A stretch of DNA of 64,000 nucleotides from an uncultured Pseudomonadales bacterium (GCA_964430265.1 CAYSEI010000001.1:154786-218785); one strand, 5' to 3'; counted from the first letter of the stretch, positions 759 through 54,588 are shown. Program-made: numbers and translations. Notes: generated by a model from the sequence alone, not told the origin.

Positions 759-810
759 AAATAATTAATTTTAAACATAATTAATATATTCAAGAGCAAA
801 GGAGGTGAAA

Positions 811-1206
811 ATGAAAAAACTTGACATTTTAGAATGTCAGCAGTGCGGACATCAGATAGAAATACTACGTGCAGGTACTGGGGAAATTGTTTGTTGTGGT
901 GAACCAATGGAAAAATTACAGGAAAAAACGGACGAAGAAGGATTGGAAGAAAAACATGTACCAGTAGTTGAAATAGAAGGGGATGATGTTTTTGTTGAAA
1001 TCGGTTCTGTTGAGCATCCAATGATTGATAAACACTATATTGAATGGATTCAGGTAATATTAGGCGATAAAAGTTATCGTCAATTCTTAAATCCCGGTGA
1101 GGCTCCTGAAGCCCATTTTGATATAGAGGAAGAGGACCTATCTTTGGAGCAAATTATTGTCCGTGAACATTGTAATATTCACGGCTTATGGAAAAAAGGA
1201 GAGTGA
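811..1206 (+). CDS. dfx: Desulfoferrodoxin-type superoxide reductase
   Basis: N-terminal desulforedoxin Cys4 site (CQQCGH...VCCGEPM). C-terminal neelaredoxin domain with HYIEWI and the CNIHGLW motif. GGAGGTG RBS at 801-807, 3 nt before the ATG at 811. Confidence 0.8.
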   Translation: MKKLDILECQQCGHQIEILRAGTGEIVCCGEPMEKLQEKTDEEGLEEKHVPVVEIEGDDVFVEIGSVEHPMIDKHYIEWIQVILGDKSYRQFLNPGEAPEAHFDIEEEDLSLEQIIVREHCNIHGLWKKGE

Positions 1207-1670
1207 AGTATTTAGTTGTATATACTTCTATACATCACAAAAATACAGAAAAAATAGCTAAAGAAATAGCTGAAGAGTTAGTTGCAGATTTAAAAAGAGC
1301 TAGGGATATAAAACCTAGCTCTTTTAAGCGTTATGAGTTAATTGGTTTTGGTTCCGGTATATACTTTGGAAAACACCACAAAAATATTCTTGAATTAATT
1401 AAAAAAGCAGATGCTTTAGCCAATAAACACGTATTTATTTTTTCAACCCGTGGAATGCCGTTGGTAGGAAAATTTTATCATAAAGAATTAAGAAAGATAT
1501 TGAAAAATAAAAAAGCTGAAATAGTTGGAGAATTTTCCTGCAGGGGACATGATACATACTATGATTTTTTAAAGAAAATAGGCGGGATAGCCAAAGGACA
1601 TCCGGATAAAAAAGATTTAGAAAGAGCAAGCAGTTTTGCAAAAAAGACAAAAGGAAAATTGGAAGATTAA
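1188..1670 (+). CDS. Flavodoxin-like protein
   Basis: N-terminal KYLVVYTSIHHKNTEKIAKEIAEEL resembles a flavodoxin FMN-binding loop. Overlaps the dfx 3' end, so probably co-transcribed. Start is ambiguous between ATG 1188 and in-frame GTG 1203. Confidence 0.55.
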   Translation: MEKRRVKYLVVYTSIHHKNTEKIAKEIAEELVADLKRARDIKPSSFKRYELIGFGSGIYFGKHHKNILELIKKADALANKHVFIFSTRGMPLVGKFYHKELRKILKNKKAEIVGEFSCRGHDTYYDFLKKIGGIAKGHPDKKDLERASSFAKKTKGKLED

Positions 1671-1676
1671 TTAATG

Positions 1677-1761
1677 TGCCGTGGGTGGGAGTCGAACCCA
1701 CACGGAGGAACACTCCACCGGTTTTTGAGACCGGCCTGTCTGCCAGTTCCAGCACCACGGC
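1677..1761 (-). tRNA. tRNA-Leu(CAA), class II with long variable arm
   Basis: Manually folded: acceptor GCCGTGG/CCACGGC, anticodon stem CCGGT/ACCGG with loop CTCAAAA (anticodon CAA), 16-nt variable arm, T-arm GTGGG-TTCGACT-CCCAC. 85 nt, CCA not encoded. Confidence 0.85.
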
Positions 1762-1798
1762 AAATCAAGATATATTATAACTGATTTTTTCTTGCAGT

Positions 1799-2452
1799 TC
1801 AGTCCTTATTTTTAGAAAGCAGTTTGATTAATAGCCATCCTGTGGCAAATCCTCCCACATGTGCAAAGTAGGCAATACCTCCGGTAGCTTGGTTCATGTA
1901 GGCTAGGCTGCCAAAACCCGAAATAAGTTCAAATATAAACCAGTAAAAAAGCATGAAATAAGCCGGTACGGTAGCGGTTCTTAAAACAAATCCAAAAGGT
2001 ATAAGAATCTCAATTTCTCTTCTCGGGTATAATACAAGATAACCTCCCATAACTCCGGCAATTGCACCGGATGCTCCCAAACTGGGAATGGTTGATCCAG
2101 TATTGATCAATATTTGTAATCCTGAAGCTCCTAGTCCGGTTATAAGATAAAATAGCAGGTATTTAAAATGTCCTAAACGATCCTCAAGGTTATCGCCAAA
2201 TATATGTAAAAAAAGCATGTTACCGAAAAGGTGCGCAAGCCCGCCGTGTAAAAAGAGTGAAGTCAATAGTGTATAAAGATTTTGCCCTTGGATAATTAAA
2301 TTCGGGACAACAGCATAATTGTTTATAAAACTTCTTAATTCGCCATTAGGAAGGGTAAAAGTAAAAAAGAAAACAATAATATTTACAGCAATTAAACTGT
2401 AGGTTACAAAAGGCAGTCTTCCTGAAGGGTTGTGATCTCTTATTGGTATCAT
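1799..2452 (-). CDS. Rhomboid family intramembrane serine protease
   Basis: Multi-pass membrane protein with the GASGAIAG catalytic Ser motif and the downstream AHVGGFATG His motif. Confidence 0.8.
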   Translation of the reverse strand: MIPIRDHNPSGRLPFVTYSLIAVNIIVFFFTFTLPNGELRSFINNYAVVPNLIIQGQNLYTLLTSLFLHGGLAHLFGNMLFLHIFGDNLEDRLGHFKYLLFYLITGLGASGLQILINTGSTIPSLGASGAIAGVMGGYLVLYPRREIEILIPFGFVLRTATVPAYFMLFYWFIFELISGFGSLAYMNQATGGIAYFAHVGGFATGWLLIKLLSKNKD

Positions 2453-2558
2453 AATGCAATTATACCACGCATTAAAGATGCAGTTATAAATAAAAATTAA
2501 GGGAGAATAATTGTATATTAAAGTTAATTTTTAATGAAGTTTTTAATTTTAAACTTTG

Positions 2559-2567
2559 TGCTATAAT
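2559..2567 (+). promoter_or_regulatory. Extended -10 promoter element TGcTATAAT, 7 nt upstream of the efp ATG (probable leaderless transcript)
   Basis: TGCTATAAT at 2559-2567, ATG at 2575. No Shine-Dalgarno sequence in between. Confidence 0.5.
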
Positions 2568-2574
2568 ATCAATT

Positions 2575-3138
2575 ATGTTTACAGCAGATGAGTTACGGAA
2601 CGGAACCACTTTTGTATATAGGAATGATCCTTACAGGGTTGTAAAATACCGCCATAGTCATATTTCGCGTAGGGGTGCTAATTATAAGGTAAAAGCAAAA
2701 AATCTAAAGACGGGTTCAGTACAAACGTTTACATTTGGTTCCAAGGATAAATTTGAAGACGCATTTTTACAAAAAAAGAAAATGCAGTATTTATACAGTC
2801 AGGATGACTCGTTGGTATTAATGGATTTGAATGATTATCAGCAAAAACAACTGGACAAAAAGAAATTTGAAAAAGCTGCAAAGTTTTTAAAAGAAGGAGA
2901 AGAAGTATATGTTTGGATTTGGGATGATGAAATTTTGGAAATAGATTTGCCAACAGCGGTTGCTTTAAAAGTAGAAAAAGCACCTCCAGGTGTTAAAGGC
3001 GACTCAGCAACCGGGGCAACAAAAAAAGTGACTCTGGAAAATGGATTGGAAGTAAGAGTCCCGCTATTTATTAACAAAGGAGAAAAGATCTTGGTTGATA
3101 CGCGTAGTGAGGAATATTTGGAAAGATTTAAAGATTAA
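2575..3138 (+). CDS. efp: Elongation factor P
   Basis: EF-P signature regions: GDSATGATKKVTLENGLEVRVPLFINKGEKILVDTRSEEY and the N-terminal KNLKTGS loop. Confidence 0.9.
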   Translation: MFTADELRNGTTFVYRNDPYRVVKYRHSHISRRGANYKVKAKNLKTGSVQTFTFGSKDKFEDAFLQKKKMQYLYSQDDSLVLMDLNDYQQKQLDKKKFEKAAKFLKEGEEVYVWIWDDEILEIDLPTAVALKVEKAPPGVKGDSATGATKKVTLENGLEVRVPLFINKGEKILVDTRSEEYLERFKD

Positions 3139-3601
3139 TAAAAGAAAGAACTGTAGCTCCTAAAGTAATTATTTGTGTTAACAATCCCCAAAAAATGTTG
3201 CCGTCCGCTTGATAATTGTGTTCAAACTGAACATATTTATCCATTAATTTATTACTGTAGTTTAAAAAATAGTAAGGGGCTTCAACCAAGTCGGGAAGGA
3301 TAGCAAAAAAAGCTCCTGTCCAAATTAAAATTACTTGCATTAATGATGCGTTTGTGAAGTAGGCGACTGCTGCAAGTGAAAGGTTGGCAACAACGACATC
3401 AGTAATAATGATTTTCAATGAATTTTTGCTAATTGATTTGCTTTTACTGTATTCAGTATAAATATGTGGATTCCAGTGGGGGATGAAAAAGTCAAAAATG
3501 AAATGGCTGAGAAAAGCCATTAATATACCAAGAAAGGGATTGTTCATTTTTAACATTAATAGCGCGCCAATTAAGGCATGGGGAGTTGTTAGCATACGCA
3601 T
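3128..3601 (-). CDS. Hypothetical multi-pass membrane protein
   Basis: ORF with four to five hydrophobic segments. No recognisable motif. Confidence 0.4.
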   Translation of the reverse strand: MRMLTTPHALIGALLMLKMNNPFLGILMAFLSHFIFDFFIPHWNPHIYTEYSKSKSISKNSLKIIITDVVVANLSLAAVAYFTNASLMQVILIWTGAFFAILPDLVEAPYYFLNYSNKLMDKYVQFEHNYQADGNIFWGLLTQIITLGATVLSFINL

Positions 3602-3654
3602 GGAGTATAGCAGAAATTGATTTCATTAGTCAACTACTATGCTATAATATTTTC

Positions 3655-4581
3655 ATGTTACCAACATTAATTCAAATTGGTCCGATTGTAATATCTTCTT
3701 TGGGAGTGCTTATAGGGATTGGGTTTTTATTTGGCAGCTTTGTATTTTGGAAAAGGGGTAAAAAAGAATACTTTAAAGAAGAAGAATTAATGGACAGTGC
3801 TATTTTAACTGCAATTGCAGGTATTTTTGGTGCCAGGCTTGGATATGTTTTTTTAAATCTTTCTCAATTTAAAGGACATTTTTGGCGGATATTTGATGTT
3901 GTAGGTTATCCTGGCTTTTGGCAGTTGTCCGGAATAGTCTCTGCTTTTTTAATGCTTTGGTATTTTGGCAAGAAAAAGGGTTGGGACTTTTTTAAGGTAG
4001 CAGACATTTTTTGTTTTGGATTAACTCTTTTTTTAATATTTTTAAGGTTTGGTCTTTTTTTAGACGGTAGTTATTATGGTGTCAAGACAGATTTACCTTG
4101 GGGTCTTAGGTTTCCCGGTTTAATAGAAAAAAGACACCCGATACAAATATATGAAATAATTTTATTTTTTATTTTTTATCAATGGCTTTTTTGGGCGGAA
4201 AAAAATTACCGTACATTTGAATGGTACCAGGGCAAAAAAGGTCAAGCTAAAGAAGGTTTTCTTTTATCTTCTTTTTTCATCTTTTTTGGTTTAAGCCGAT
4301 TTGCTGTTGAATTTATACGCGTTGATACAATATATTGGAATTCACTGAGTATTTCACAATGGACAGCATTATTGTTTTTAGTTAGTGGTTTGATAATCTT
4401 GTTTACAAGAAGCGGGCAGGAGCTGAATATTGACATGGATTTAAGCGGAAAGAAGGATAAGGATAGTAAAAAAGAAGATACGGAAGAATTAAATAAGAAA
4501 AAAGAAAGGGAGAAACCTGTTAGAAAAAGGAAGAAAGTCAAAAAGAAACGTTTTAAAACAGGGGTGGATGCAAAGAAATAA
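3655..4581 (+). CDS. lgt: Prolipoprotein diacylglyceryl transferase with Lys-rich C-terminal tail
   Basis: Lgt signature RHPIQIYE plus the GYPGFWQ and FLDGSYYG blocks. Start reassigned to ATG 3655 (MLPTLIQIGP), which is preceded by TGcTATAAT at 3640-3648. The last ~60 aa are KKE-rich. Confidence 0.8.
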   Translation: MLPTLIQIGPIVISSLGVLIGIGFLFGSFVFWKRGKKEYFKEEELMDSAILTAIAGIFGARLGYVFLNLSQFKGHFWRIFDVVGYPGFWQLSGIVSAFLMLWYFGKKKGWDFFKVADIFCFGLTLFLIFLRFGLFLDGSYYGVKTDLPWGLRFPGLIEKRHPIQIYEIILFFIFYQWLFWAEKNYRTFEWYQGKKGQAKEGFLLSSFFIFFGLSRFAVEFIRVDTIYWNSLSISQWTALLFLVSGLIILFTRSGQELNIDMDLSGKKDKDSKKEDTEELNKKKEREKPVRKRKKVKKKRFKTGVDAKK

Positions 4582-4605
4582 TAAATTAATTGTAAGGAGG
4601 CAGAA

Positions 4606-4974
4606 GTGGCTAAAGTGAAGTTTCCGTTATCAGTACTAGAACCAGTAAGAAACTATCTGCAAAAAGAGGAAAAAAAACTAAGAAAAAGGAAAAAGGAGCT
4701 TTCTAAGGAAGATCCTTTTGAAGATCCGGATAGATTAAACGACAATGCAGCGGATTCTGATGCAGCTGAAAAAATTGGGCACGACAGGGTTTCTGCACTA
4801 AAAAAAGAAATTGACAAAACTTTAATTGAAGTAAGAAAAACTTTGACTAAGATTAAGCTGGGTAAATACGGACTTTGTGAAAGTTGTGGTGAGTTAATTG
4901 ATACTGATAGACTGTCAATAAAGCCAACTGCAGATTTATGCATGAAATGCTTAAAAAAGAAAAGCAAAAATTAA
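4606..4974 (+). CDS. DksA/TraR family C4 zinc-finger protein
   Basis: C-terminal CESCGELIDTDRLSIKPTADLCMKC (CxxC-x17-CxxC) follows a coiled-coil region. GTG start at 4606 with AAGGAGG RBS at 4594-4600. Confidence 0.7.
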   Translation: MAKVKFPLSVLEPVRNYLQKEEKKLRKRKKELSKEDPFEDPDRLNDNAADSDAAEKIGHDRVSALKKEIDKTLIEVRKTLTKIKLGKYGLCESCGELIDTDRLSIKPTADLCMKCLKKKSKN

Positions 4975-5372
4975 TTACTGTTGGAATTATTGTTGCAGTT
5001 GATCAGTTAATTAAACAGCTTCTGCTAAAATTTGGTTATAATATTGTCCTCAATAAAAAGGGTTTTTTGGGTTTATTTGATTCAAACAAAATTGCTATTA
5101 TTGTATTTGTTTTTTTGTTGATCTTTTTATACTTTTTTATTATTGCAAAAAAGAAAGAACCTTCTTTAGGTTTTTTAATGGTAATGGGGGGAGGGATTAG
5201 TAATGGTTTTGACTTTATTTTGCATAAGGGAATTATTGACTACATAAAACTTTCATTTTTACCACTAATTGGTAACTATCTTCCCATATTTAATTTGGCT
5301 GATTTAGCCATATCAACAGGTGTAATTATTATTGTTATTAATATGATAATAACAGAGGAAGAACAGGATTAG
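4938..5372 (+). CDS. lspA: Lipoprotein signal peptidase II
   Basis: SPase II conserved blocks GGGISNGFDFILHKGIIDY and FNLADLAISTGVI. An alternative start is ATG 4947. Overlaps the dksA-like 3' end. Confidence 0.75.
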   Translation: MHEMLKKEKQKLITVGIIVAVDQLIKQLLLKFGYNIVLNKKGFLGLFDSNKIAIIVFVFLLIFLYFFIIAKKKEPSLGFLMVMGGGISNGFDFILHKGIIDYIKLSFLPLIGNYLPIFNLADLAISTGVIIIVINMIITEEEQD

Positions 5373-5437
5373 ATTACTTGACAAAGTAATTGGTTTTGCT
5401 ATAATTCCAACTTGTCCCAATCTAATATTGGGATTTT

Positions 5438-5980
5438 ATGTTAATAACAACTATTTTCTCCCTATACTTGGAAGCCAGAGTTGCTTTGGCGCCCAGAATT
5501 AACAAAATCCAACAAGATAGTAAATACGTGGATTTGGCTTCTTATGGCAAAATACCGCTTAAAAGTGAAAAAAAAGTATTTAAAGATAAAAAAATGGATA
5601 ATAAAGATAAAAAGACTGATAAAATAGCTCAACAAACAAGTGCTATTAATAGGCAAGTTAAGGCTGAAGTTCCGGTAAGTATTTCTTCTATTCAAGAAAT
5701 CAGGGATTTTTTTGAAAAGTACGGCAATGAATATGGATTAGATCCTAAATTGCTTGAAAAAATTGCCTATTGTGAATCAGGATTTAACAATCGGGCGGTA
5801 AATGGTCCTTATGCAGGCCTTTTTCAATTCTGTTCCAGTACTTGGGTTTCAAACAGAAGAGCATTGGGGCTTAATACTAATCCAAATTTGAGGTTTAATG
5901 CAGAAGAATCTGTAAGAACAGCTGCTTTTAAAATATCCCGTGACGGAACTGGGGCCTGGCCGGTTTGCGGAAACATTTAA
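5438..5980 (+). CDS. Transglycosylase-like (IsaA/SceD/Rpf-like) domain protein with N-terminal membrane anchor
   Basis: C-terminal CESGFNNRAVNGPYAGLFQF..STW matches the transglycosylase-like domain signature. N-terminal hydrophobic segment. Confidence 0.55.
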   Translation: MLITTIFSLYLEARVALAPRINKIQQDSKYVDLASYGKIPLKSEKKVFKDKKMDNKDKKTDKIAQQTSAINRQVKAEVPVSISSIQEIRDFFEKYGNEYGLDPKLLEKIAYCESGFNNRAVNGPYAGLFQFCSSTWVSNRRALGLNTNPNLRFNAEESVRTAAFKISRDGTGAWPVCGNI

Positions 5981-6045
5981 TTTTTCTCTGGTTAATTTGT
6001 TCATGTTTTGTAATTACTATAGATTCTTTAATGTATAATTAAGCT

Positions 6046-6816
6046 ATGCTTGAACCACAAATAATTTATGAAGACAATTCAATCCTTGTAGTTAATAAAC
6101 CTTTTGGTTTGATAGTGAATAATTCTGAAAGTGCACGTGCATTAACATTACAAGCTTGGTTAAAGAAAAATCGTGAATATCACAAAAAAATAAGTGGGAA
6201 TAAACAAATAGAAAAGGAATTTAAAAAGAGGACTGGGATAGTACATAGATTGGACAGGGAGACAAGCGGTGTAATGGTGGTAGCAAAATCAATCAAGGCT
6301 TTTAAAGAACTTAAACAACAGTTTAAAGCCCGAGAAACGAGGAAGTTATATTATTGTTTAGTACATGGTTATGTAGAACCTCAAAAAGGTCATATACGCT
6401 GGCCAATTGCAAGGAATCCCAGAAATCGGTTGCGTTTTGCAGTTCGTGCCAAGGGTAGAATGTCTGAAACATTTTACAAAGTGGAGGAGAGGTATAAAAA
6501 AGAAAACAAAGAAACTGATCATGGTAAGAAAATAAATAAAGATTACACTTTTTTAAAAGTATTTCCTAAGACTGGCAGGACACACCAAATTAGAGTACAC
6601 TTGGATTTTATTGGTCACACAATTGTTTCTGACAGTTTGTATCTAAGCGGTGATAAATATCAGGAGGATTTGAATTGGTGTCCGCGCTTGTTTCTTCATG
6701 CAGCAGAATTGACATTCTTACACCCGAAAAAAGGGAAAAAAATGACTTTTGAAGCTTTAATGCCAAAACAGCTAAACCAGGTATTAAAACAGAACTTAAG
6801 CTTGACAATAAAATAA
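6046..6816 (+). CDS. RluA-family pseudouridine synthase
   Basis: Catalytic motif HRLDRETSGVMVVAK and the HQIRVHL block. Preceded by TGTATAAT at 6032-6039, 6 nt before the ATG. Confidence 0.85.
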   Translation: MLEPQIIYEDNSILVVNKPFGLIVNNSESARALTLQAWLKKNREYHKKISGNKQIEKEFKKRTGIVHRLDRETSGVMVVAKSIKAFKELKQQFKARETRKLYYCLVHGYVEPQKGHIRWPIARNPRNRLRFAVRAKGRMSETFYKVEERYKKENKETDHGKKINKDYTFLKVFPKTGRTHQIRVHLDFIGHTIVSDSLYLSGDKYQEDLNWCPRLFLHAAELTFLHPKKGKKMTFEALMPKQLNQVLKQNLSLTIK

Positions 6817-6840
6817 GAACTTAGTTAAGATATACTTAAT

Positions 6841-7023
6841 ATGGATAAAAACAATCAGTCTGTTTTACAAGAGGAAGTACAAGAAAACGATGTTCAAGAA
6901 AACATTGAGGAAACAAAGGCAACAAATGAGGATCTTGAAAAAGCAGCGAAAACAGTGCAAGAGCAAGTAATGAAAGAGTTAAATAAAATAGCGGATACAG
7001 AAAACACCTCCCAAGACGAATAA
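6841..7023 (+). CDS. Small acidic hypothetical protein
   Basis: 60-aa Glu/Asp-rich ORF with no motif. Coding status is uncertain. Confidence 0.3.
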   Translation: MDKNNQSVLQEEVQENDVQENIEETKATNEDLEKAAKTVQEQVMKELNKIADTENTSQDE

Positions 7024-7077
7024 TACTAACGTCTTTTCAACTTATCTATTTTGTAATAGCTGTTTAGTTAGTTATTT

Positions 7078-8001
7078 GTGATATATTATTTTTATATGCA
7101 AAAGAGATCAATAAGCGGAATTATTCTTAAATGGCTTAAATTATTAATTTTTATAAGCTTTATTGTTGGAGTGATTTTTTTGCTTATACAGGGAGTAAAA
7201 GCTTTTAAAAACTCTGTGTGGGAAAAAGAAAATACTCTCAGCTATGTGAAAATAGGAGAGGAAATAGAGTTGTATTCTTTTCATCCGCAAGAAGATAAAT
7301 TTTTTATTGTAGATTTTCCTGAAGAAATTTTAATCAATACTGCTAAAGGTTTTGGGGAATATAAATTAAAAAACATCTATGCTTTAGGGGAACAAGAAGG
7401 GATAGGTGGAGGTAAGCTTTTATCTTATAGTCTACAAAATTATTTGGAAGGACCAATTGACGGCTGGATCTTAAAAAAGAAAGGAATAAAAGGGTTTGAA
7501 GTTTCTAATTTTACCTGGTGGGATAGATTAAGAATATTTTGGAAAGAAAAAAATGTTAAGTTTAATCAAAAGGAAAGGATAGACCTTGAATCGGAAGGTT
7601 ATCTTCAAAAAGAAGAATTAGCTGACGGAACTGAAGTTTGGAAGTTTAAGGAAAACCAAAAAGAGAATCTTGCAATTAGAATTTTTGGAGATTCAAAGGT
7701 TATCCCCCTTAAACCACAAATAAAAGTCTTAAATGCTACCGGAAAGTCTAAACTTGGACAACATGTTGCAGAAATGTTGAGGAATATTGGTTTCCAGGTG
7801 GTGACAGTAAAAAACAATCCGGAAATTATGTCAAAAACATCTCTTGTTGCGTTTGAAGAAGAAAATAATAGATATAATTATCCGCGCAACAAAATTAGAA
7901 AGATTTTTTCTCTTAATAGAGTAGAGGAAAGAAGAGGTTTGGAGGTTGAGTTTATACTAAATATTGGTTTGGATTATTGGAGTGAATATTGGGGGAAATG
8001 A
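7078..8001 (+). CDS. LCP-like cell-envelope protein with LytR_C-type C-terminal domain
   Basis: N-terminal TM segment. The central GFGEYKL...LEGPIDGWIL block resembles LCP family. The C-terminal KVLNATGKSKLGQHVAEMLRNIGFQVVTV resembles LytR_C. The true start may be ATG 7096. Confidence 0.4.
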   Translation: MIYYFYMQKRSISGIILKWLKLLIFISFIVGVIFLLIQGVKAFKNSVWEKENTLSYVKIGEEIELYSFHPQEDKFFIVDFPEEILINTAKGFGEYKLKNIYALGEQEGIGGGKLLSYSLQNYLEGPIDGWILKKKGIKGFEVSNFTWWDRLRIFWKEKNVKFNQKERIDLESEGYLQKEELADGTEVWKFKENQKENLAIRIFGDSKVIPLKPQIKVLNATGKSKLGQHVAEMLRNIGFQVVTVKNNPEIMSKTSLVAFEEENNRYNYPRNKIRKIFSLNRVEERRGLEVEFILNIGLDYWSEYWGK

Positions 8002-8013
8002 TATAATATAACT

Positions 8014-8742
8014 ATGTCAGGACATTCAAAGTGGAGTAAAATCAAACACCAGAAAAGTGCAGAAGACAAGAAAAGAAGCAAGGTTTTTTCCAAGCTTTCT
8101 GAAGCAATATCAACTGCTGTAAAAGAGGGCGGTGGAGATGATCCGGAATTTAATGCCCGTTTGAAAATGGAAATTGAAAAAGCAAAAGAGGCAAATATGC
8201 CAAAAGAAAATATTCAAAGCGCAATTGACAGGGGTGCAGGAAGAGGAGAATACGGGAAAACAGAAAATATTGTTTATGAAGGTTTTGCACCTCACAAAGT
8301 TGCTCTGGTTATAAAATGCAATACTGATAATAGAAACAGAACTGCTTCAGAAATTAAATACTTGTTTGATAAAAATAACGGTTCTTTAGGTGCACCCGGA
8401 TCAAGCAGTTATCTTTTTGAGGAAAAAGGTATTTTGGAAATTTTAAAAAACAAGAATGGGGAAGAGCAGGCGTTGGAGTTAATGGAGATGAATATAGAAG
8501 ACTTTGAATTAAAAAAAGAAAAAATAAAAGTATATGTATTACCAAAAAATTTAAGCGATATTAAAAATAAAATTAAAGAGTCGGGTTTTGAAATAAAAAA
8601 AGCGGGGATAGTATTAGAACCAAAATCCACAATCACTCTTTCAGAAGATAAATATAAAAAGGTTAACAACTTCATAAATGACTTAAAAGAACACGATGAT
8701 GTTCAAATGGTCTTTAGTAATATTAAACTCATAAATGGATAA
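8014..8742 (+). CDS. yebC: YebC/PmpR family transcriptional regulator
   Basis: Diagnostic N-terminus MSGHSKWSKIKHQK and the EGGGDDPEFNARL block. Preceded by TGaTATAAT at 7999-8007, 6 nt before the ATG. Confidence 0.9.
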   Translation: MSGHSKWSKIKHQKSAEDKKRSKVFSKLSEAISTAVKEGGGDDPEFNARLKMEIEKAKEANMPKENIQSAIDRGAGRGEYGKTENIVYEGFAPHKVALVIKCNTDNRNRTASEIKYLFDKNNGSLGAPGSSSYLFEEKGILEILKNKNGEEQALELMEMNIEDFELKKEKIKVYVLPKNLSDIKNKIKESGFEIKKAGIVLEPKSTITLSEDKYKKVNNFINDLKEHDDVQMVFSNIKLING

Positions 8743-9505
8743 ACGTAAACGCTTTATTATTCAATCAGCTGTTTTATCAGCAGGTTTGTTAGCAATCCAA
8801 TCATTGTCATTGGAATGGCGGTATATTGCGGTTGCAGCCTTGTCGGTTCTGGCTTATTTTGCTTCTGCTTGGAGTTTAAGGGAGGCTTTAGTCAAGATTA
8901 GTTGGTTAACAGTTCTTCCGCTTACATTGCTTTACACGGCGGCTGTCAGTCTTTTCTATTTTCTTTTGCCTTCAAGCATTATTACCAGGATTGTGATTAT
9001 TTCTTTATTTGGAGTGGGTATGTATGCTTTACTTTTAACCAAAAATATTTTTCTGGTGGCGGCAGATAAAACTATTCAGCTTTTAAGAGCTGCCCAGGCG
9101 GTGGGATTTATAATTACTCTTATAACAGTTTTTTTTCTTTTTAACACAATTTTTTCGTTTAAACTAATTCCTTTAGAAAATAGTTTAATAAGCCTTGCTT
9201 TTGTGCCCTTTCTTGTTCTGTCTTCCTTGTGGAGTGTTTCTTTAAAAAAGTATATAGGGAAGAGGATAATAAATTATACTTTGGTTTTGGCTTGGTTAAT
9301 AGCCCAGCTAACCTTTTTTATTAGCTGTTGGCCTCTGTCAATAACTACCTCAGCCTTATTTTTAGTAAGCTATCTTTATGTAATTCTTGGAATTGTCCAA
9401 AACGCGATAATGGGAAAATTATTTAAAGATGTTTTAAAAGAATATCTTCGAGTTGCAATAATAATATTTATTTTAACTTTGTTTCTTGCAAATTGGACAC
9501 AATAA
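8735..9505 (+). CDS. Hypothetical polytopic membrane protein
   Basis: About 8 hydrophobic segments. No motif recognised. Confidence 0.4.
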   Translation: MDKRKRFIIQSAVLSAGLLAIQSLSLEWRYIAVAALSVLAYFASAWSLREALVKISWLTVLPLTLLYTAAVSLFYFLLPSSIITRIVIISLFGVGMYALLLTKNIFLVAADKTIQLLRAAQAVGFIITLITVFFLFNTIFSFKLIPLENSLISLAFVPFLVLSSLWSVSLKKYIGKRIINYTLVLAWLIAQLTFFISCWPLSITTSALFLVSYLYVILGIVQNAIMGKLFKDVLKEYLRVAIIIFILTLFLANWTQ

Positions 9506-10896
9506 TGCAGAATAGAGAAGAGAGTAGTGATATATCCTATAATTCCTTGTTTAAACATCCTATAATAACTTTGTTTTCACGAATTATGCTATAATTTTTC
9601 ACGCTGGCAGCAATGCATATTAAATGCTAAGTATTTTTTTCGGGTGATATGGTTTGATATAGTGTTGTGGAAAAGTAGAGGTTAAAGGAAGAAGATGAAT
9701 AGTTAGAGAACAAATAACTAAAAATAAATAATTCAAAATAAAATAACAAAATAATTTTTCGTATTTTTAAAAATTGATTTTAGGGCTTATCTTCTCCCGC
9801 TTATATTTTGCCGTTTTTTTGCATCTTAGAGAAGGTAGATTACTGGTGTGAGTATTATGTCGCACAAGATACATTTTGCGACATTAAGCTAATGTGGGAG
9901 AAGAATCACTCTTGTTTTTTTAAATTCTAAAAAAACCGTAACATTTGCAAAAAAATCATAAAAAATAACTATTATCTGAATCTTATTTTTGTTCTACTAC
10001 TCTATTTTTTTCTTAACTTTCATTGTTTCTTCTTAGCGTCTTTGTTTACAAGTAAAAAGTTTGTTTTTAACTAAATATTTGTAGTTTTATCAAAAGTTTG
10101 GTCTTTGTTAACGACTAGTTATATATTAACTATCTTTAAAATAGCTTAGAATGGCGCTTATTGATTTATCCTCATGTGACAAGTAAAATTAACGGTTTTC
10201 ATTATTTATTTACAATAAAACCTAATGCATATGGTTTTTATTGACAACAACCTACTATCACAATACAAAAATTATTTTATACACGTTAATTTATTAAAAT
10301 TTGAATGTGAATGTTTAAAAAAAAGTGTTTGTATTTCCCAATTTTAAAATAACTCTAAATATTTTAATTGCAACATTTTGTAAATAATTGCAATTAAAAG
10401 TAAAAGTAAAATTTTTGCTCACTTTATAAATTATTGTTAAATTAAAGTTTATTAAATAAATTAAAATGAATATTTAGGATAAACTTTACACGTCGCACAA
10501 AATTTTAATTTATTGTAAACTTATATTTTATCAGATTTTATAAATTACTATTGATTATCAAAAATTCAACAATTCTTGACATTATTGTTTTTATTTGTTT
10601 TAATATCGTAGTGTCGCACAAAACACTACTCTACTCTGATAAGTAAAAGTAGTTAAAAATAGCTACACTTTAAATAATAAAAGCAAATATTTGCAAAAAA
10701 AAAGATAGTTAAACAATTTGCTTAAAAAATTTATTAATTGATTTAATAGAAATTCTTGAAATTGTAAAAAAAGTATCTATTAGAGGTATTATTCTAATTA
10801 GATATGTAACAGATAAATAACAATGTATAAAACAGGGTATAAATTTGACTGTCAAATCAATATATTATTAAATTACCCCTGTTTTAGCACTTAAAA

Positions 10897-11886
10897 ATGA
10901 TGTTTGCTAAAGATTCCACCTCTGATGACGATAAAATTACTCGAGAAGACCCAAATGCATGGGAATACTGGATTGATCAGTTTCTGGAGTATCTGGAACT
11001 TGAAAAAAATAGTTCTCCACTGACTATCAGGAATTACCGCTTGTATTTAAAGACTTTTGAAGAGTGGATTAGTGAAAAATATGACAATTTAGATTTGTGC
11101 GACTTGGATGTGGATGTAATTAAGGATTACCGATTGCATTTAAAAAGAAAAAAAACTCGCGATGGACAAACTTTGAAAAAGAAAACCCAGGCATATTATC
11201 TTACAGCTCTGCGCTCATTTCTTAAATTCCTTTCCAAGCGAGATATTGATTCAATGGCGGCTGTAAAGATAGAGTTGCCTAAAGAAGAGGAAACTCCAAT
11301 TAAGTTTTTGAATCCGGACCAGGTTCACCGATTAGTTGAAGCTCCGGAAACAACAGAAGAAGCAGATTTGCGTGATAAAGCTATTTTAGAGACCTTATTT
11401 TCTACAGGTTTACGTGTCTCTGAATTAGTCAGCTTGGACCGCGATCAGCTTGATTTTAAGCGCAAGGAACTTGGTGTAATAGGTAAAGGTAGGCGTCCCC
11501 GGGTAGTGTTTTTATCAGACCGCTGTGTTGTTTGGCTGAAAAGATATTTGCAAAAAAGGGATGATGATTGGAAGCCTTTATTTATCCGTTATTCCGGAGC
11601 TGTGGACCATTCTAGTTACGGAGAAAATATGCGGCTTTCATCTCGTTCTGTACAAAGAATTGTTAAAAAATACGGGAAAAAGGCTGGGCTTCCAATTGAG
11701 GTAACTCCTCATGTTTTGCGTCATTCGTTTGCAACTGATTTATTAGCTCATGGGGCGGATTTAAGATCTGTTCAGGAAATGCTGGGACATAAAAACGTTT
11801 CCACAACACAAATTTATACTCACGTAACAAATAAAAGGCTTAAGGAAGTACATAAGAAATTTCACTCCGGAAGTTCAGAAGATTAA
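10897..11886 (+). CDS. Tyrosine recombinase (XerC/XerD / phage integrase family)
   Basis: C-terminal catalytic region VLRHSFATDLLAHGADLRSVQEMLGHKNVSTTQIYTHV (R..HxxR..Y). N-terminal SAM-like core-binding domain (LELEKNSSPLTIRNYRLYLK). Confidence 0.85.
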   Translation: MMFAKDSTSDDDKITREDPNAWEYWIDQFLEYLELEKNSSPLTIRNYRLYLKTFEEWISEKYDNLDLCDLDVDVIKDYRLHLKRKKTRDGQTLKKKTQAYYLTALRSFLKFLSKRDIDSMAAVKIELPKEEETPIKFLNPDQVHRLVEAPETTEEADLRDKAILETLFSTGLRVSELVSLDRDQLDFKRKELGVIGKGRRPRVVFLSDRCVVWLKRYLQKRDDDWKPLFIRYSGAVDHSSYGENMRLSSRSVQRIVKKYGKKAGLPIEVTPHVLRHSFATDLLAHGADLRSVQEMLGHKNVSTTQIYTHVTNKRLKEVHKKFHSGSSED

Positions 11887-15071: not shown

Positions 15072-15219
15072 TTAAGTTGTTTGCTATATAATTTTTTTCT
15101 AATTTATTAGCTTAAATATAACATATTTAAATAAAATTGCATAGTTAATATGTATGTTTAAATTATTTCTGCTTCTTCTATTTCATTAAATTTAAAAGTT
15201 TGTGTTATAGTATTAATAT

Positions 15220-15750
15220 ATGATTTTAAACCAGGAACAAATAATAATTATTGCAACAAAAGCAGGTAGGATTGGATTAATAATCCTTCTCGCCATTACA
15301 AGTGGAAAGATAATCGATTTTTTAGTTAAAAAATTGAGAAAGCAAATAAAACTTACAGGTATAGAAGAATCGGAAGATCAGAGAAGAAAAAGATTAAATA
15401 CAATTAATTCTTTATTAACTACCAGCAGCAGCATTATAATCAGTTTAATTGCTTTATTAATTATTCTGGCGGAATTAGGTGTTAATATTTTACCTCTTTT
15501 AACGGGAATAGGAATATTAGGTTTAGGTTTTGGTATGGGTGCAAAAACCATGATTTCTGATTTAATTGCGGGTTTTTTTATACTTCTTGAAAATCAGTTT
15601 AATGTTGGAGATCAGGTAAAACTTGGTGGTCAGTGGGAAGGAAAAGTGCAAGAAATTACATTAAGAACAGTCCATTTAAAAGACAAAAAAGGCAGAAAAT
15701 ATATTATTCCCAATTCACAAATAAATACGGTAATTATTTTAGAAGAATAA
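15220..15750 (+). CDS. Small MscS-family mechanosensitive channel
   Basis: Pore helix GMGAKTMISDLIAGFFILLENQFNVGDQVKL followed by the beta-domain ITLRTVHLKD..G.KYIIPNSQI. Confidence 0.6.
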   Translation: MILNQEQIIIIATKAGRIGLIILLAITSGKIIDFLVKKLRKQIKLTGIEESEDQRRKRLNTINSLLTTSSSIIISLIALLIILAELGVNILPLLTGIGILGLGFGMGAKTMISDLIAGFFILLENQFNVGDQVKLGGQWEGKVQEITLRTVHLKDKKGRKYIIPNSQINTVIILEE

Positions 15751-15798: not shown

Positions 15799-18417
15799 TT
15801 ATTTTTTCTCTTCCTCTTCAAGTTTTCTTTTGTCCAAGCATGTGACTGCTGCAACTTTGTCATTTTTATCTTTAAAGCGCATCAGTATTACGCCTTGAGT
15901 TACCCGGCTTAATCTTGGAATATTCTTAAGCGGTAGTTTGATCACTTGGCCAGATGTTGAAGTTACAACAATATTTTTAATGTTTTGATTTACCCAAAGT
16001 GCATTAACAACTTTTCCTGTTTTAGGGGTAATTTGTCCTACTTTAACTCCGACTCCGGCACGGTTTTGTACAGGGTATTTTTTTAACGGCGTTCTTTTAC
16101 CGATTCCGTTTTTCGTTACCATAAGAAGATCATTAAAGAATTTTAAACGTCCATCTTCAGGAGGTTCAATGTCAGCAGGAATTCTTTCAGCGGAAACTAC
16201 ATAATCGTCTTTTTTCAAGTTTATTCCTTTTACTCCGGTTGTTGCTCTTCCCATTGGCCTAACGTCTTTTTCTTCAAACTTGATTGACTTGCCGTTTCTG
16301 GTGACTAGCATAACATAATCTTTTCCTGTGGTGGCCATTGCCTCTACTAGACGGTCGTCTTTTTTTAGATTGACTGCAATCAGGCCGTTGGAACGGATAT
16401 TTTCATAATCACCAATCTTAGTTTTTTTGACAATGCCTTTTTTGGTTGCTACTAAAATGTATTTTTTCTTTTTGTCTCCATTAAGTTTTAATACGGCTTG
16501 TACTTTTTCATTTTGTTCAATATTTATTAAATTAATAATTGCTTGTCCCTTACTCTGTCTTGTGCATTCTGGAAGGTTAAATGCTTTAAGGTCAAAAACT
16601 TTCCCTTTATCAGTAAAGAAGAGTAATCGGTCATGTGTAGTTGCAGACATTATATCGGCAATCACATCTTCTTCTTTAGTTTTCATGCCTTTTACACCCT
16701 TCCCTCCTCTTCTCTGTTTTTTGTAAGTACTGGTAGGGAGTCTTTTAATGTAACCGGACTTGGTAATAGTTATTAAACATTTTTTCTTGGCGACTAAATC
16801 TTCTTCACTAAATTGATCTAGTGGTTGCTTATAAAGTTTTGTTCTTCTTTCATCACCGTATTTTTCTTTAAGATCTTTAAGTTCTCCAACTATTACATTC
16901 AAGACTTCTTTTGGATCATTCAGAAGTGTAACTAGTTTATCAATTTTCTTTTTGATTTCCTTATATTCATCTTCTATTTTTTGTCTTTCTAAAGCTGCCA
17001 ATCTTCTCAACTGCATATTTAAGATTGCTTCCGCCTGAATATCTGTAAGTTCAAACTTTTCCATCAAGTTTTTACGCGCAATATCTGCATCTTTTGATTT
17101 TTTGATAGTTTCAATTACCGCATCTAAGTTGTCCAATGCAATTTTAAGACCTTCTAAAATATGGGCTCTTCTGCGTGCTTTTTTTAGATTAAACTGTGCT
17201 CTTTTAACGACAACTATTTGTCGGTGTTTAATAAATTCCGAAAGAATAATTTTTAAATTAACCAATTGAGGTGTACCGTTTACAAGTGTAACCAAGTTGG
17301 CGGGAAAACTTTTTTGTAATCTAGTTCTTTTGTATAAATTATTCAGAACTGCTTTTGGCCTTGCATTTCTTTTTAGTTCAATTGCAATCTGCATGCCTCT
17401 GCGGTCGGATTCGTCACGGATGTCAGTTATCCCGTTTATTTTTTCGTCTTTAACCAAGTCTGCAATTTTTTTAATTAAACGTGCTTTATTAACCTGATAA
17501 GGAAGTTCTTTAACTAATATTTTATGATGTCTTTTTTCCTCAACAATTTCTGTTACTGCCCGGTTAATAATTTTACCCTTACCAGTTGTATATGCTTCTT
17601 TAATTTTTTCCCAATCATACATTTCTCCACCGGTTGGGAAATCTGGTCCTTGAAGGTGTTCAAACAATTGTTCATATGTAACTTCGGAATGGAAATCTCC
17701 GGTCAGTTTTTCTGCTTCAACTTCTTCAGGTTTTGCAATTTTTTCCTTGTTCTCTTTTTCAGATTTACCATGTTTGATCATTTCTTTAACAGCATCAATG
17801 ACCTCGCTCAAGTTGTGTGGGGGGATTTTGGTTGCCATGCCAACAGCAATACCGTCAGCACCTAGTAAAAGGAGATTAGGAATTTTTGCCGGTAAGTATT
17901 TTGGTTCTTCCATTGAACCGTCAAAGTTATCAATAAATTCAACAGTTTCTTTATTAATATCTTTTAGCATTTCCTGAGAAATTTCTGCCATTCTTGCCTC
18001 TGTATAACGCATAGCTGCAGCAGAATCTCCGTCAACCGAACCAAAGTTACCGTGTCCGTCAACCAAAGGATACCTAAGAGAAAAGTCTTGTGCCATTCTT
18101 ACTAAGGCGTCATAAATTGCTGCGTCTCCATGCGGATGGTATTTCCCCATAGTTTCACCAACAATCTTTGCTGATTTGGAATATTTGCTGTTATGTGTAA
18201 CTCCCATACTATTCATGGCATATAGAATTCTTCTCTGAACCGGCTTCATACCGTCACGCACGTCAGGCAAGGCTCTAGAAACAATAACACTCATAGCATA
18301 ATCAAGGTATGCTTGTTTCATTTCATCGGTAATTTTGGTAGGAACAATCTTACCAATGCCTTTTTTCTTAATAACTCTATCTTTTAAACTGGTTTGTTCT
18401 TCTTTTTTATCGTTCAT
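15799..18417 (-). CDS. gyrA: DNA gyrase subunit A
   Basis: N-terminal YAMSVIVSRALPDVRDGMKPVQRRILYAM with active-site Tyr region, the 872-aa length, and C-terminal beta-pinwheel repeats. Confidence 0.95.
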   Translation of the reverse strand: MNDKKEEQTSLKDRVIKKKGIGKIVPTKITDEMKQAYLDYAMSVIVSRALPDVRDGMKPVQRRILYAMNSMGVTHNSKYSKSAKIVGETMGKYHPHGDAAIYDALVRMAQDFSLRYPLVDGHGNFGSVDGDSAAAMRYTEARMAEISQEMLKDINKETVEFIDNFDGSMEEPKYLPAKIPNLLLLGADGIAVGMATKIPPHNLSEVIDAVKEMIKHGKSEKENKEKIAKPEEVEAEKLTGDFHSEVTYEQLFEHLQGPDFPTGGEMYDWEKIKEAYTTGKGKIINRAVTEIVEEKRHHKILVKELPYQVNKARLIKKIADLVKDEKINGITDIRDESDRRGMQIAIELKRNARPKAVLNNLYKRTRLQKSFPANLVTLVNGTPQLVNLKIILSEFIKHRQIVVVKRAQFNLKKARRRAHILEGLKIALDNLDAVIETIKKSKDADIARKNLMEKFELTDIQAEAILNMQLRRLAALERQKIEDEYKEIKKKIDKLVTLLNDPKEVLNVIVGELKDLKEKYGDERRTKLYKQPLDQFSEEDLVAKKKCLITITKSGYIKRLPTSTYKKQRRGGKGVKGMKTKEEDVIADIMSATTHDRLLFFTDKGKVFDLKAFNLPECTRQSKGQAIINLINIEQNEKVQAVLKLNGDKKKKYILVATKKGIVKKTKIGDYENIRSNGLIAVNLKKDDRLVEAMATTGKDYVMLVTRNGKSIKFEEKDVRPMGRATTGVKGINLKKDDYVVSAERIPADIEPPEDGRLKFFNDLLMVTKNGIGKRTPLKKYPVQNRAGVGVKVGQITPKTGKVVNALWVNQNIKNIVVTSTSGQVIKLPLKNIPRLSRVTQGVILMRFKDKNDKVAAVTCLDKRKLEEEEKK

Positions 18418-19368: not shown

Positions 19369-21360
<1,992 letters not shown>

Positions 21361-21441: not shown

Positions 21442-22134
21442 CTATAATTCTAAAACCATATTTTCCATAGCTAGTTTAACATTTACATTCTTTTCTAAAA
21501 GATATTTTGTTCTGCGTAAAAGCTTGATTATTCTGAGAACTTCTTTTTTATTTGCTTTTTTGTCTTTGATTGCAACTTGGCGTAAAGCAAAAATTGATTC
21601 TTTACAAAACTGCACTGCTTTTTCCCTAGACTTTATATGCGGTTCAATTTTATTTATGCGTTCCCCTGCTCCACTTTTGATTAAGCTTCTTAACTTTTCA
21701 AGCTTTTCTTTTTTTCTTTTGGCATCCATATTGGTTTCTTTGTTTTGTGACAGGTTTACAATCTGACAACGGGACGTAATTGTGGGTAAAAAGTTATTTT
21801 TATGGGAGGCGGATATAAAAATGTATTTGTTGTCAGGTATTTCTTCAAGTGTTTTTAAGAATGCATTCTGTGCTTCTCTGGTCATTTTTTCGCCTTGTAA
21901 AATAACTACTATTTGTACTGAATGTTGATAAGGTTTTTTAGAAAGAAAGCTTTGAATCTTTCTGACATTATCTATTCCAATTGAATTTGGGAGATTTAAC
22001 AAAAAAAGATCAGGATTATTTTGGTTTTCCTCTATAGTAATTTCGGGGAAATCAATACTATATATATTAAGAATATTATTAATCTTTTTTAGGTTTTGTT
22101 CTTGGTCGGTGCTAATGATAAGATAAGAATGCAT
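21442..22134 (-). CDS. holB: DNA polymerase III delta-prime-like subunit, short form
   Basis: TREAQNAFLKTLEEIPDNKYIFI and the TITSRCQIVNL sensor motifs. Only 230 aa, with no Walker A. Confidence 0.7.
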   Translation of the reverse strand: MHSYLIISTDQEQNLKKINNILNIYSIDFPEITIEENQNNPDLFLLNLPNSIGIDNVRKIQSFLSKKPYQHSVQIVVILQGEKMTREAQNAFLKTLEEIPDNKYIFISASHKNNFLPTITSRCQIVNLSQNKETNMDAKRKKEKLEKLRSLIKSGAGERINKIEPHIKSREKAVQFCKESIFALRQVAIKDKKANKKEVLRIIKLLRRTKYLLEKNVNVKLAMENMVLEL

Positions 22135-22139
22135 TTACC

Positions 22140-22169
22140 TTGACATTATACTAGGATACATGTAAAAAT
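22140..22169 (+). promoter_or_regulatory. Sigma70-like promoter for the pil operon (TTGACA-17-TGTAAAAAT)
   Basis: TTGACA at 22140-22145, a 17-nt spacer, then an extended -10 at 22161-22169. ATG of pilB at 22177. Confidence 0.45.
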
Positions 22170-22176
22170 TAAACCA

Positions 22177-36892: not shown

Positions 36893-36937
36893 AAAAAGAA
36901 TTGACTTTTATACAAACTTTTATTTATTATAGTAATA

Positions 36938-37690
36938 ATGAACTTGAAGGAAAATAAATCAGGGCAAATAGCAATGATTGCTTTATTGGTAATGGTAGTA
37001 GTACTTACCGTAGGCTTGGCAGTTATCTCCCAAACAGTTACTGATATCTCAATTTCCGAGGATGAAAAAGAAGCAATACGTGCTTTTTCCGCAGCAGAAG
37101 CAGGAATAGAAGAAATTCTAAAAGAAACTAATATTCAATCTAATGCATATACAATTGATGATACTGACGTAAATGTTGAAGTAGCAGAAATTTCCGATGA
37201 TTTTACCCAAACTTTGGATAAAGGGGAAACAATGACAGTCTTCTGGAATGCTGTAGCAGGTCCGGAAGATTTGACTGTTAACTGGGTGGATGGAACTAAA
37301 GATAATGAACAAGATGATTTGGCAACTTTAGCAATATCAATTTTCCATAGTAATGGAGATGTAACAAGAACTGGATGGTCTCCTAATAATGCGCGTGCGG
37401 GACAAGAAGGATTTACAGAAGTTTCTGCGGGCGGTGCCGACGAATTTCTAAGAGGAAACACAATTGGTCTTACTACAAATGACGAATTTATAAGAATCAA
37501 AGCATTAGTTGATGAAACAACAGTTCGTGTAAGCAATGCTAACCTTCCTAAACAAGCATTTAATTTAACTTCAACTGCAGTTACTCCACAAGAAAAAGCA
37601 AGCCGAGTAGTTGTTAAAAAAACGCTTCCGGTTATGTTACCTCTATTTGATTATGTATTGTTTTCAAAAGGTAATATTACCAAGAGTTAA
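36938..37690 (+). CDS. PilX-like minor pilin (pilin 9)
   Basis: N-terminal SGQIAMIALLVMVVVLTVGLAVIS resembles the PilX_N domain. 250 aa. Confidence 0.55.
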   Translation: MNLKENKSGQIAMIALLVMVVVLTVGLAVISQTVTDISISEDEKEAIRAFSAAEAGIEEILKETNIQSNAYTIDDTDVNVEVAEISDDFTQTLDKGETMTVFWNAVAGPEDLTVNWVDGTKDNEQDDLATLAISIFHSNGDVTRTGWSPNNARAGQEGFTEVSAGGADEFLRGNTIGLTTNDEFIRIKALVDETTVRVSNANLPKQAFNLTSTAVTPQEKASRVVVKKTLPVMLPLFDYVLFSKGNITKS

Positions 37691-40236: not shown

Positions 40237-40466
40237 TAGCTTTTTTCGGCCAAAGATTTAACAGTTGGAGTGGGTTTTGCACCTTTTTTAATCCATTCTT
40301 TGTATTTCTTTTTATCAAGTTTAAATTCTGCCGGTTCTTGGCGTGGATTATAGTATCCGAGTCGGTCCAAATATTTGCCGTCCCTTTTGGATTGTGCTTC
40401 TTGCACTACGATCCTAAAAGAGGGCTGATTTCTTTTACCGGTTTTTGATAGTCTTATTTTTAGCAT
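40236..40466 (-). CDS. rpsP: 30S ribosomal protein S16
   Basis: MLKIRLSKTGKRNQPSFRIVV...RDGKYLDRLGYYNP. Confidence 0.95.
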   Translation of the reverse strand: MLKIRLSKTGKRNQPSFRIVVQEAQSKRDGKYLDRLGYYNPRQEPAEFKLDKKKYKEWIKKGAKPTPTVKSLAEKS

Positions 40467-40496
40467 ATATAGATTTTATCAGTTTTCAATTAATTT

Positions 40497-54567: not shown

Positions 54568-54588
54568 TACCTGTAAATAATACCAAAT

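Follow-up and report, generated by a model that had tools for sequence, protein, structure and literature searches.

Extended -10 promoter boxes next to start codons point to leaderless translation of operon-first genes in a 64-kb window of bacterial DNA

In a 64-kb stretch of contig CAYSEI010000001.1 (the whole stretch of DNA analysed, hereafter the window; 34% GC, standard genetic code), a group of mostly operon-first genes carries a -10 promoter box, predominantly in its extended form TGnTATAAT, 6-8 nucleotides (nt) ahead of the start codon, and no Shine-Dalgarno (SD) sequence. For most of the genes described below, these promoters probably start transcription at or near the AUG, giving mRNAs that are translated in a leaderless manner. 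Leaderless translation of operon-first genes had been proposed in an earlier note on this DNA from five cases, and every computational test run here supported the proposal, the evidence being verified start codons, a peak in the spacing between box and start, TGn and -35 elements, the mutual exclusion of box and SD sequence, and tightly spaced divergent gene pairs. From these observations we infer both the position of the transcription start and the ribosomal mechanism.

The sequence of translation elongation factor P (EF-P) identifies the probable host as a member of the Patescibacteria or candidate phyla radiation (CPR), its nearest named match being Ca. Beckwithbacteria (48% identity); the genome is small. 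TGA serves as a stop codon in the window, for example at the end of the LytR_C gene (7999-8001). The motif analysis was anchored on a curated table of 65 genes, whose identities were assigned by Pfam and of which 32 were classed as first in their unit (upstream gap of at least 40 nt, or divergent) and 33 as internal. An SD core was looked for 3-17 nt from each start.

Each of the five genes originally singled out has a perfect TATAAT 6-7 nt ahead of its ATG, as described in the earlier note. On the minus strand this is the rhomboid gene (start region 2450-2467; Pfam Rhomboid), with TGGTATAAT at 2459-2467, a 6-nt spacer (N6) and the ATG at 2452-2450. On the plus strand, efp (2559-2577) has TGCTATAAT at 2559-2567, N7 and the ATG at 2575; lgt (3640-3657) has the same TGCTATAAT at 3640-3648, N6 and the ATG at 3655; a rluA-like gene (6032-6048) has TGTATAAT, that is TG followed by TATAAT, at 6032-6039, N6 and the ATG at 6046; and yebC (7999-8016) has TGATATAAT at 7999-8007, N6 and the ATG at 8014. 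The yebC box overlaps the TGA that ends LytR_C, the gene 12 nt upstream of yebC. The reported lack of an SD sequence at these five starts was borne out, no SD-like core being present at a distance of 3-17 nt. The description of all five boxes as extended -10 elements held for rhomboid, efp, lgt and yebC, which carry TGn, and needs amending for the rluA-like gene, whose box is not a canonical extended -10 because its TG directly abuts TATAAT without the intervening base.

The assignment of these start codons is well constrained. Four of the five ATGs are the earliest possible starts after the upstream stop codon. The exception is lgt, whose frame remains open as far upstream as a TTG at 3586; here the start was placed at 3655 because position 1 of the Pfam LGT profile aligns with residue 3 and the orthologs begin MLPT. 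Position 1 of EFP_N likewise falls on residue 3 of EF-P and position 1 of YebC_N on residue 5 of YebC, and overall positions 1-2 of the N-terminal Pfam profiles lie at residues 3-13 of the proposed proteins. The N-termini of orthologs are conserved, with MSGHSKW for yebC and MLTTPH for a small open reading frame (ORF) antisense to and divergent from lgt (the antisense ORF).

Raw motif counts gave no enrichment in the window: TATAAT-N5-8-ATG occurred 7 times (4.85 expected) and TGNTATAAT 8 times (4.3 expected), both within the range of shuffled sequence. In DNA of 34% GC, such numbers would fit an explanation by which the boxes are chance words in AT-rich intergenic DNA, or by which start codons were mis-assigned. 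Because of this lack of raw enrichment, statistics anchored on start codons were adopted. Five of the seven TATAAT-N5-8-ATG matches turned out to be the first start codons of real genes. Among the 60 perfect TATAAT hexamers on both strands of the window, five lie at spacer 6 or 7 before the 65 tabulated starts, compared with 0.06 expected from the window-wide rate and 0.21 expected from the intergenic rate (Poisson p ~3e-6).

A spacer histogram that made no use of gene calls, in which -10-like hexamers (at least 5/6 matches, with A2 and T6 required) were scored at spacers 0-40 before the first ATG of ORFs of at least 80 codons, peaked at spacers 6, 7 and 8 with 5, 3 and 3 matches, respectively, against about 0.7 per spacer elsewhere. 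The sum over spacers 6-8 was 11 observed versus 2.2 expected (p=1.7e-5). No peak was seen for internal in-frame ATGs (3 observed, 4.6 expected) or for ATGs opening short ORFs (26 observed, 27.4 expected). The spacing-enrichment check proposed in the earlier note was thus positive, both in the window and, as described below, in five syntenic relatives. With at most 0.2 perfect hexamers expected where five were found next to verified starts, flat control histograms, replication in relatives (p=2e-11) and starts fixed by Pfam together with ortholog N-termini, we regard the explanation by chance or mis-assigned starts as having next to no probability.

The start-proximal hexamers moreover have the features of promoters. 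In the 65-gene table, a good -10 hexamer precedes 12 starts at spacer 6-8 and four at spacer 9-10, and nine of these 16 hexamers have TG one base upstream (rhomboid, efp, lgt, yebC, the antisense ORF, LytR_C, mscS, rpsP and infC); the corresponding share is 7.1% for such hexamers across the whole window (p=3e-7) and 14% for those in intergenic DNA (p=1e-4). A weaker candidate upstream of a penicillin-binding protein (PBP) gene also carries this TG. At the antisense ORF, pilB, a PilX-like gene and orf60, a TTGAC(A/T) lies 17-18 nt from the hexamer. Seven of the eight copies of TGNTATAAT fall into the non-coding 8% of the window, one of them being the leadered promoter of the SLT transglycosylase gene. 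An SD sequence and a -10 hexamer at spacer 6-10 never occur in one gene, and no SD core was found within 3-17 nt of any candidate start.

The spacing itself is what a promoter start at the AUG would require. With the modal spacer N6, the A of the ATG lies exactly 7 nt after the -10 box, and the normal start position at sigma-70 promoters is some 7 nt beyond the final T of the box, with a preference for purines there. All 12 starts at spacer 6-8 are ATG, which fits the known preference of leaderless translation for AUG; the two GTG cases (infC and murT) have spacer 9. Tight divergent gene pairs add a steric argument, since the ATGs of holB and pilB are 42 bp apart and those of the antisense ORF and lgt 59 bp, leaving no room for 5' untranslated regions (UTRs).

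A further explanation holds that the mRNAs are leadered and transcribed from more distant promoters, and that the TATAAT-like words act in translation as AU-rich, unstructured ribosome-loading sites of the non-SD type known from GeneMarkS-2 group B genomes such as Bacteroidetes. About half of the window genes have neither an SD sequence nor a -10 box, and many of these are A-rich upstream, so that SD-independent initiation on leadered mRNAs clearly exists in this genome; a good -35 is also missing at the flagged promoters. Against this explanation, TGn and correctly spaced TTGACA belong to promoters and are not known to act in translation, and the peak at N6-8 is sharp rather than a diffuse AU-rich region. 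The motif is also absent before tightly coupled internal genes except for two weak AATAAT words, promoters for divergent pairs 42-59 bp apart would have to sit within the neighbouring gene, and the motif is kept in relatives of 45-50% GC. We therefore consider distant promoters with AU-rich loading sites unlikely. Mis-assigned starts, AU-rich ribosome-binding site (RBS) motifs and chance were all considered and rejected on the evidence given so far.

The arrangement was then compared among loci obtained by exact-protein look-ups. Five of them (L048, L057, L058, L060 and L064) share with the window the order DnaB-efp-orf(-)-lgt-dksA-lspA-rluA-LytR_C-yebC-DUF5656 and were pooled as syntenic relatives, EF-P of L048 being 69% identical to that of the window; L052 retains part of this order. 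L059, L062 and L063 are less similar to the window, and L061, from a sporulating Firmicute, served as a control. At spacers 6-10, the five syntenic relatives had 27 hexamer-ATG pairs against 5.3 expected (p=2e-11), and TGn was present on 8 of these 27 peak hexamers versus 3 of 38 elsewhere. No enrichment at these spacers was observed in four other CPR-like loci (8 versus 7.6 expected) or in the Firmicute (1 versus 1.4 expected). The matches from a single-protein scan of genome contigs, at 30-40% identity, all belonged to Burkholderiales or to other non-relatives. These loci showed an apparent peak (18 observed versus 7.5 expected) and were left out as a control, as they are mutually syntenic and high in GC and hence not independent. 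A scan of metagenomes yielded four contigs, all short and distant.

Gene by gene, conservation in the relatives was mixed. For yebC, a -10 box at N6-7 before the invariant MSGH start is found in the window, L058, L060 and L064, that is in four of seven genomes, two of which have 45-50% GC. For efp, a box at N7-10 is present in five of eight genomes, namely the window, L048 and L057 (both N9), L060 (N10) and L064 (N7, with TTGACA-N18). TATACT precedes the antisense ORF at N8 to N10 in four genomes (N9 or N10 in L048, L057 and L058), and rluA has N6 or N7 in the window and L048 (TATAAT-N7-ATG in L048). The rhomboid ortholog of L048 has TATACT-N8-ATG, and LytR_C of L057 has TGCTATGAT-N9-ATG. This mixed pattern indicates that the arrangement is a property of the sub-lineage, within which individual genes switch mode.

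An unusual layout was found in L058 (9896-10003), in which the efp ATG follows a tRNA-Leu(CAA) gene (9913-9998) by 2 nt and the tRNA gene in turn lies 8 nt after a TGGTAAAAT box, a promoter of its own. An SD sequence is physically impossible here and SD-independent initiation unavoidable. The layout implies a tRNA-efp co-transcript; processing of the tRNA 3' end would then release efp as a nearly leaderless mRNA, in a manner resembling the tRNA punctuation of mitochondria. In L059, 28 AU-rich nt separate this tRNA from the downstream efp.

Several observations weigh against leaderless initiation at these genes. At the five flagged promoters the -35 elements are poor (3/6 matches or worse), and a two-hexamer promoter scan gave the same number of sites as shuffled sequence in this AT-rich DNA (32 versus 31.8 expected), so that the extended -10 box is the only element marking these five as promoters. 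Within the window, first-in-unit genes differ from internal ones in both signals at weak significance only (Fisher p=0.09), in part because three strong TGn promoters occupy short gaps. Among the relatives, the lgt arrangement is not kept, the -10 box lying 30-31 nt upstream in L048 and L052; L052 has GGAGG before efp and a 26-nt leader before yebC; and spacers of 9-10 nt are frequent, which points to short leaders rather than strictly leaderless mRNAs. In the window, yebC could be co-transcribed with the gene that ends 12 nt upstream of it.

This last point belongs to a wider explanation, according to which the -10 boxes are real, translation proceeds mostly from upstream read-through transcripts, and the ATG-proximal starts are minor or regulatory. 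It applies mainly to yebC, rpsP and infC, which begin 12, 30 and 21 nt, respectively, after a co-oriented gene, and no terminator-like hairpin was found in the interval between LytR_C and yebC. Even on a read-through transcript these genes would lack an SD sequence, and initiation would be SD-independent either way. Furthermore, yebC is first in its unit beside a divergent gene in L058, L060 and L064, with the -10 box at N6-7 kept, and read-through cannot reach the rhomboid gene, efp, the antisense ORF or lgt, all of them divergent. Dominant read-through translation is thus very improbable.

Leaderless initiation therefore remains our preferred reading, and its steps would be as follows. Promoters of the sigma-70 type, mostly with an extended -10 (TGnTATAAT) and a weak or absent -35, would, judging from their spacing and features, direct RNA polymerase to start at the A of the start codon or 1-3 nt before it. 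The mRNAs so produced would have no 5' UTR and no SD sequence, and the ribosome carrying initiator tRNA would recognise their 5'-terminal AUG. In leaderless translation as it is known, the 5'-terminal AUG is recognised by ribosome-bound initiator tRNA and no SD sequence is needed. The remaining genes are SD-led, overlap the upstream gene and are possibly translationally coupled to it, or have AU-rich leaders without an SD sequence.

The gene table bears on how the genome divides its starts among these modes. Of the 32 first-in-unit genes, nine have a hexamer of at least 5/6 matches at spacer 6-8, two have one at spacer 9-10, five have an SD sequence and 16 have neither signal; the corresponding numbers for the 33 internal genes are three, two, 12 and 16. 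The arrangement hence affects 9-11 of the 32 first-in-unit genes, roughly a third, or up to about 13 if weaker candidates are included. Three of the five internal genes with a hexamer at 6-10 carry TGn and have independent grounds for a promoter, and the other two are weak AATAAT cases (59531 and 60217) that we rate as chance. In total, an SD core is present in 17 of the 65 genes, about a quarter, and neither signal in 32; the 3' end of the 16S rRNA lies outside the window. The statement in the earlier note that internal genes carry strong RBSs holds for dfx, the pilins and pilM (GGAGG or AGGAG 4-5 nt upstream) and not for internal genes at large, only 12 of 33 having an SD sequence. Similarly, the two proposed initiation modes, leaderless-type and SD-led, are both present, yet the scheme is incomplete in view of the large third class with neither signal, made up of overlapping, possibly translationally coupled genes and genes with AU-rich leaders lacking an SD sequence.

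Altogether, the window contains 11-17 candidates, some of which have spacers of 9-10 nt that imply leaders of 1-3 nt. Besides the five genes above, the antisense ORF, which encodes a conserved small membrane protein beginning MLTTPH (3593-3633, minus strand), has TTGACT at 3628-3633, 18 nt, TGCTATACT at 3604-3612, N8 and the ATG at 3595. LytR_C (7079-7098, plus strand) has TGATATATT at 7079-7087 (N8) and an overlapping TATTAT at 7084-7089 (N6) before the ATG at 7096, and a mscS-like gene (15203-15222, plus strand) has TGTTATAGT at 15203-15211, N8 and the ATG at 15220. In the divergent holB/pilB pair (22132-22179), holB on the minus strand has TATAAT at 22145-22150, N10 and the ATG at 22134, and pilB on the plus strand has TTGACA at 22140-22145, 17-18 nt, TAAAAAT at 22163-22169, N7-8 and the ATG at 22177. 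The PilX-like gene (36901-36940, plus strand) shows TTGACT at 36901-36906, 18 nt, TATTAT at 36925-36930, N7 and the ATG at 36938. On the minus strand, rpsP, encoding S16 (40464-40481), has TGATAAAAT at 40473-40481, N6 and the ATG at 40466, with a TTGAAA -35 at 16 nt, and recG (43761-43776) has TAAAAT at 43771-43776, N7 and the ATG at 43763.

The near-leaderless candidate orf60 (6802-6843, plus strand) has TTGACA at 6802-6807, 18 nt, TAAGAT at 6826-6831, N9 and the ATG at 6841; L048 has the same promoter, followed there by a 27-nt leader with GGAG. Weaker candidates are the PBP1-type gene (47638-47658, plus strand; TGCTAAACT at 47638-47646, N9, ATG at 47656) and infC (54565-54585, minus strand; TGGTATTAT at 54577-54585, N9, GTG at 54567), the latter rated weaker because its start codon is not ATG, and murT is a weak one (63636-63653, minus strand; TAGAAT at 63648-63653, N9, GTG at 63638). 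The pilB, orf60 and PBP hexamers match at 4/6 positions; these genes were listed for their -35 or TGn and are outside the 16 counted above. The apparent GTG start of infC lies 21 nt after thrS, with position 1 of the Pfam IF3_N profile at residue 7, and this unusual start codon on a possibly near-leaderless mRNA could be related to IF3 autoregulation.

SD-led genes of the window, which have GGAGG or AGGAG 4-8 nt upstream, are exemplified by dfx (795-813, plus strand), with GGAGG 5 nt before the ATG at 811. Further SD-led starts are those of dksA (4606), two pilins (26205 and 34667), pilM (37699), thrS (56337) and a gene at 58203. Another contrast is the leadered SLT gene (5378-5440, plus strand), with TTGACA at 5378-5383, 16 nt, TGCTATAAT at 5397-5405 and the ATG at 5438. 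Its promoter matches the consensus at 12/12 positions, and it has no SD sequence; a hairpin at 5414-5434 is followed by a T-run (TTT) that stops 3 nt short of the ATG. L048 repeats this layout at ~15630-15692 with another stem (GTCACAC...GTGTGAT), which suggests that the leader structure is conserved, as an attenuator or a 5' stabiliser. Three genes on the minus strand, with starts at 21324, 53395 and 57242, also have a G+C-rich hairpin (~21338-21355, 53412-53432 and 57255-57272, respectively) and a T-run that ends 5-16 nt upstream of the ATG; they lack both an SD sequence and a nearby -10 box. A secondary cluster of -10-like hexamers was noted at spacers 28-32 before first ATGs (9 matches over 5 spacers), for example at SLT and at a gene starting at 13659, and similarly at lgt of L048 and orf156 of L052; though not significant alone, it may reflect a preference for SD-less leaders of some 22-25 nt. 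A clear long regulated leader is present in the same genome as well, namely a T-box at 47229-47520 on the minus strand (Rfam RF00230, 106.9 bits) upstream of a 342-aa gene (46179-47207) that has an AAGGGGG-type SD at its start.

Two features lie apart from these leaders. A very AT-rich, ORF-free gap of 1.4 kb (9505-10897) precedes a Xer-type tyrosine recombinase gene (10897-11886). At its core (9857-9884) is an 11-6-11 inverted repeat, ATGTCGCACAA-GATACA-TTTTGCGACAT, and GTCGCACAA has four exact copies in the window, which cluster at 9859-11103. This core is kept in the equivalent gap of L057 (14812-14849), L060 (~16080-16129) and L052 (19646-19690), and the repeat resembles the dif/Xer sites that adjoin the recombinase gene in single-recombinase Xer systems. 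Three co-oriented consensus -10 boxes on the plus strand are aimed into the gap (TCCTATAAT at 9535-9543 and 9558-9566; TGCTATAAT at 9587-9595). There was no Rfam match at E<=1 in 9450-10950, no ORF of at least 60 aa on the plus strand of the gap and no conservation beyond the dif-like site. In L064, the DnaB helicase gene (1314-3890, 858 aa) has Pfam matches to an intein and LAGLIDADG.

Hardly any CPR bacteria, or Patescibacteria, have been cultivated, and their ribosomes are reduced. More tentatively than for the individual genes, and as something that may or may not hold, we propose that a Microgenomates-type CPR sub-lineage forms a low-GC, standard-code clade with leaderless initiation as a main mode for operon-first genes; the window has an SD sequence at only about a quarter of its genes, and one relative has an ORF placed straight after a tRNA gene. 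If so, CPR would join the leaderless-rich phyla Actinobacteria, Deinococcus-Thermus and Mollicutes, leaderless use might be tied to the reduced CPR ribosome, and SD-trained gene finders would misplace starts in CPR metagenome-assembled genomes. For annotation, such finders would be prone to wrong starts wherever a promoter box takes the place of an RBS ahead of the start; the longest open frame of lgt begins 69 nt too far upstream. In heterologous expression, leaderless-type CPR genes would bring no RBS. For the evolution of initiation, orthologs within one clade switch between leaderless, SD-led and tRNA-abutted forms. TGnTATAAT, with an optional TTGACA at 17-18 nt, can serve as a working promoter consensus for the lineage. 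Our literature search returned no statement linking leaderless genes with Patescibacteria, CPR or Saccharibacteria; a transcript-start set reportedly exists for Nanosynbacter lyticus (TM7x), a cultivated CPR bacterium.

Among known systems, extended -10 promoters, which function without a -35, resemble the window boxes in having TGn, a consensus -10 and a weak or absent -35, as in four of the five flagged genes and several others. That class, however, is defined for promoters only, and the fixed distance of 6-8 nt to the ATG is specific to the arrangement described here. The closest counterpart is group C of GeneMarkS-2, whose operon-first genes have their start codons 6-8 nt away from a Pribnow box and whose other genes follow an RBS model, 25-50% of transcripts being leaderless; this group is frequent in Actinobacteria and Deinococcus-Thermus, with Mycobacterium tuberculosis, Deinococcus deserti and Streptomyces as examples (PMC6028130). 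A related class is formed by the 'TA-led' genes of Zheng et al. 2011, leaderless orthologs of which switch mode with phylogenetic distance (PMC3160421). The window shares with both a box 6-8 nt from first-gene starts without an SD sequence, SD-type RBSs on some of the other genes, a share of about 25-50% of units affected and orthologs that switch mode. It differs from group C in that its motif is the full TGnTATAAT rather than the degenerate TANNNT and has been read from sequence alone, and in coming from a 34% GC, standard-code genome of the Patescibacteria/CPR. Such a genome is an atypical host, since nearly all code-11 group C genomes are high in GC and the low-GC ones are code-4 Mollicutes (MetaGeneMark-2 preprint).

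Mollicutes such as Mycoplasma are similar in their small, AT-rich, reduced genomes and their large predicted share of leaderless transcripts (30-60% in low-GC Mollicutes according to the same preprint), yet they read TGA as Trp, whereas TGA is a stop codon in the window, and the lineages are unrelated. Group B, of the Bacteroidetes type, resembles the window in that many genes lack an SD sequence and are A/T-rich upstream. The group B motif stands before every gene, internal ones included, and so cannot be a promoter (PMC6028130), whereas the window motif comes with TGn and -35 features and is all but missing at tightly coupled internal genes. The pattern described here thus matches a known leaderless signature, of which it is an example at the level of a lineage, the mechanism itself not being new.

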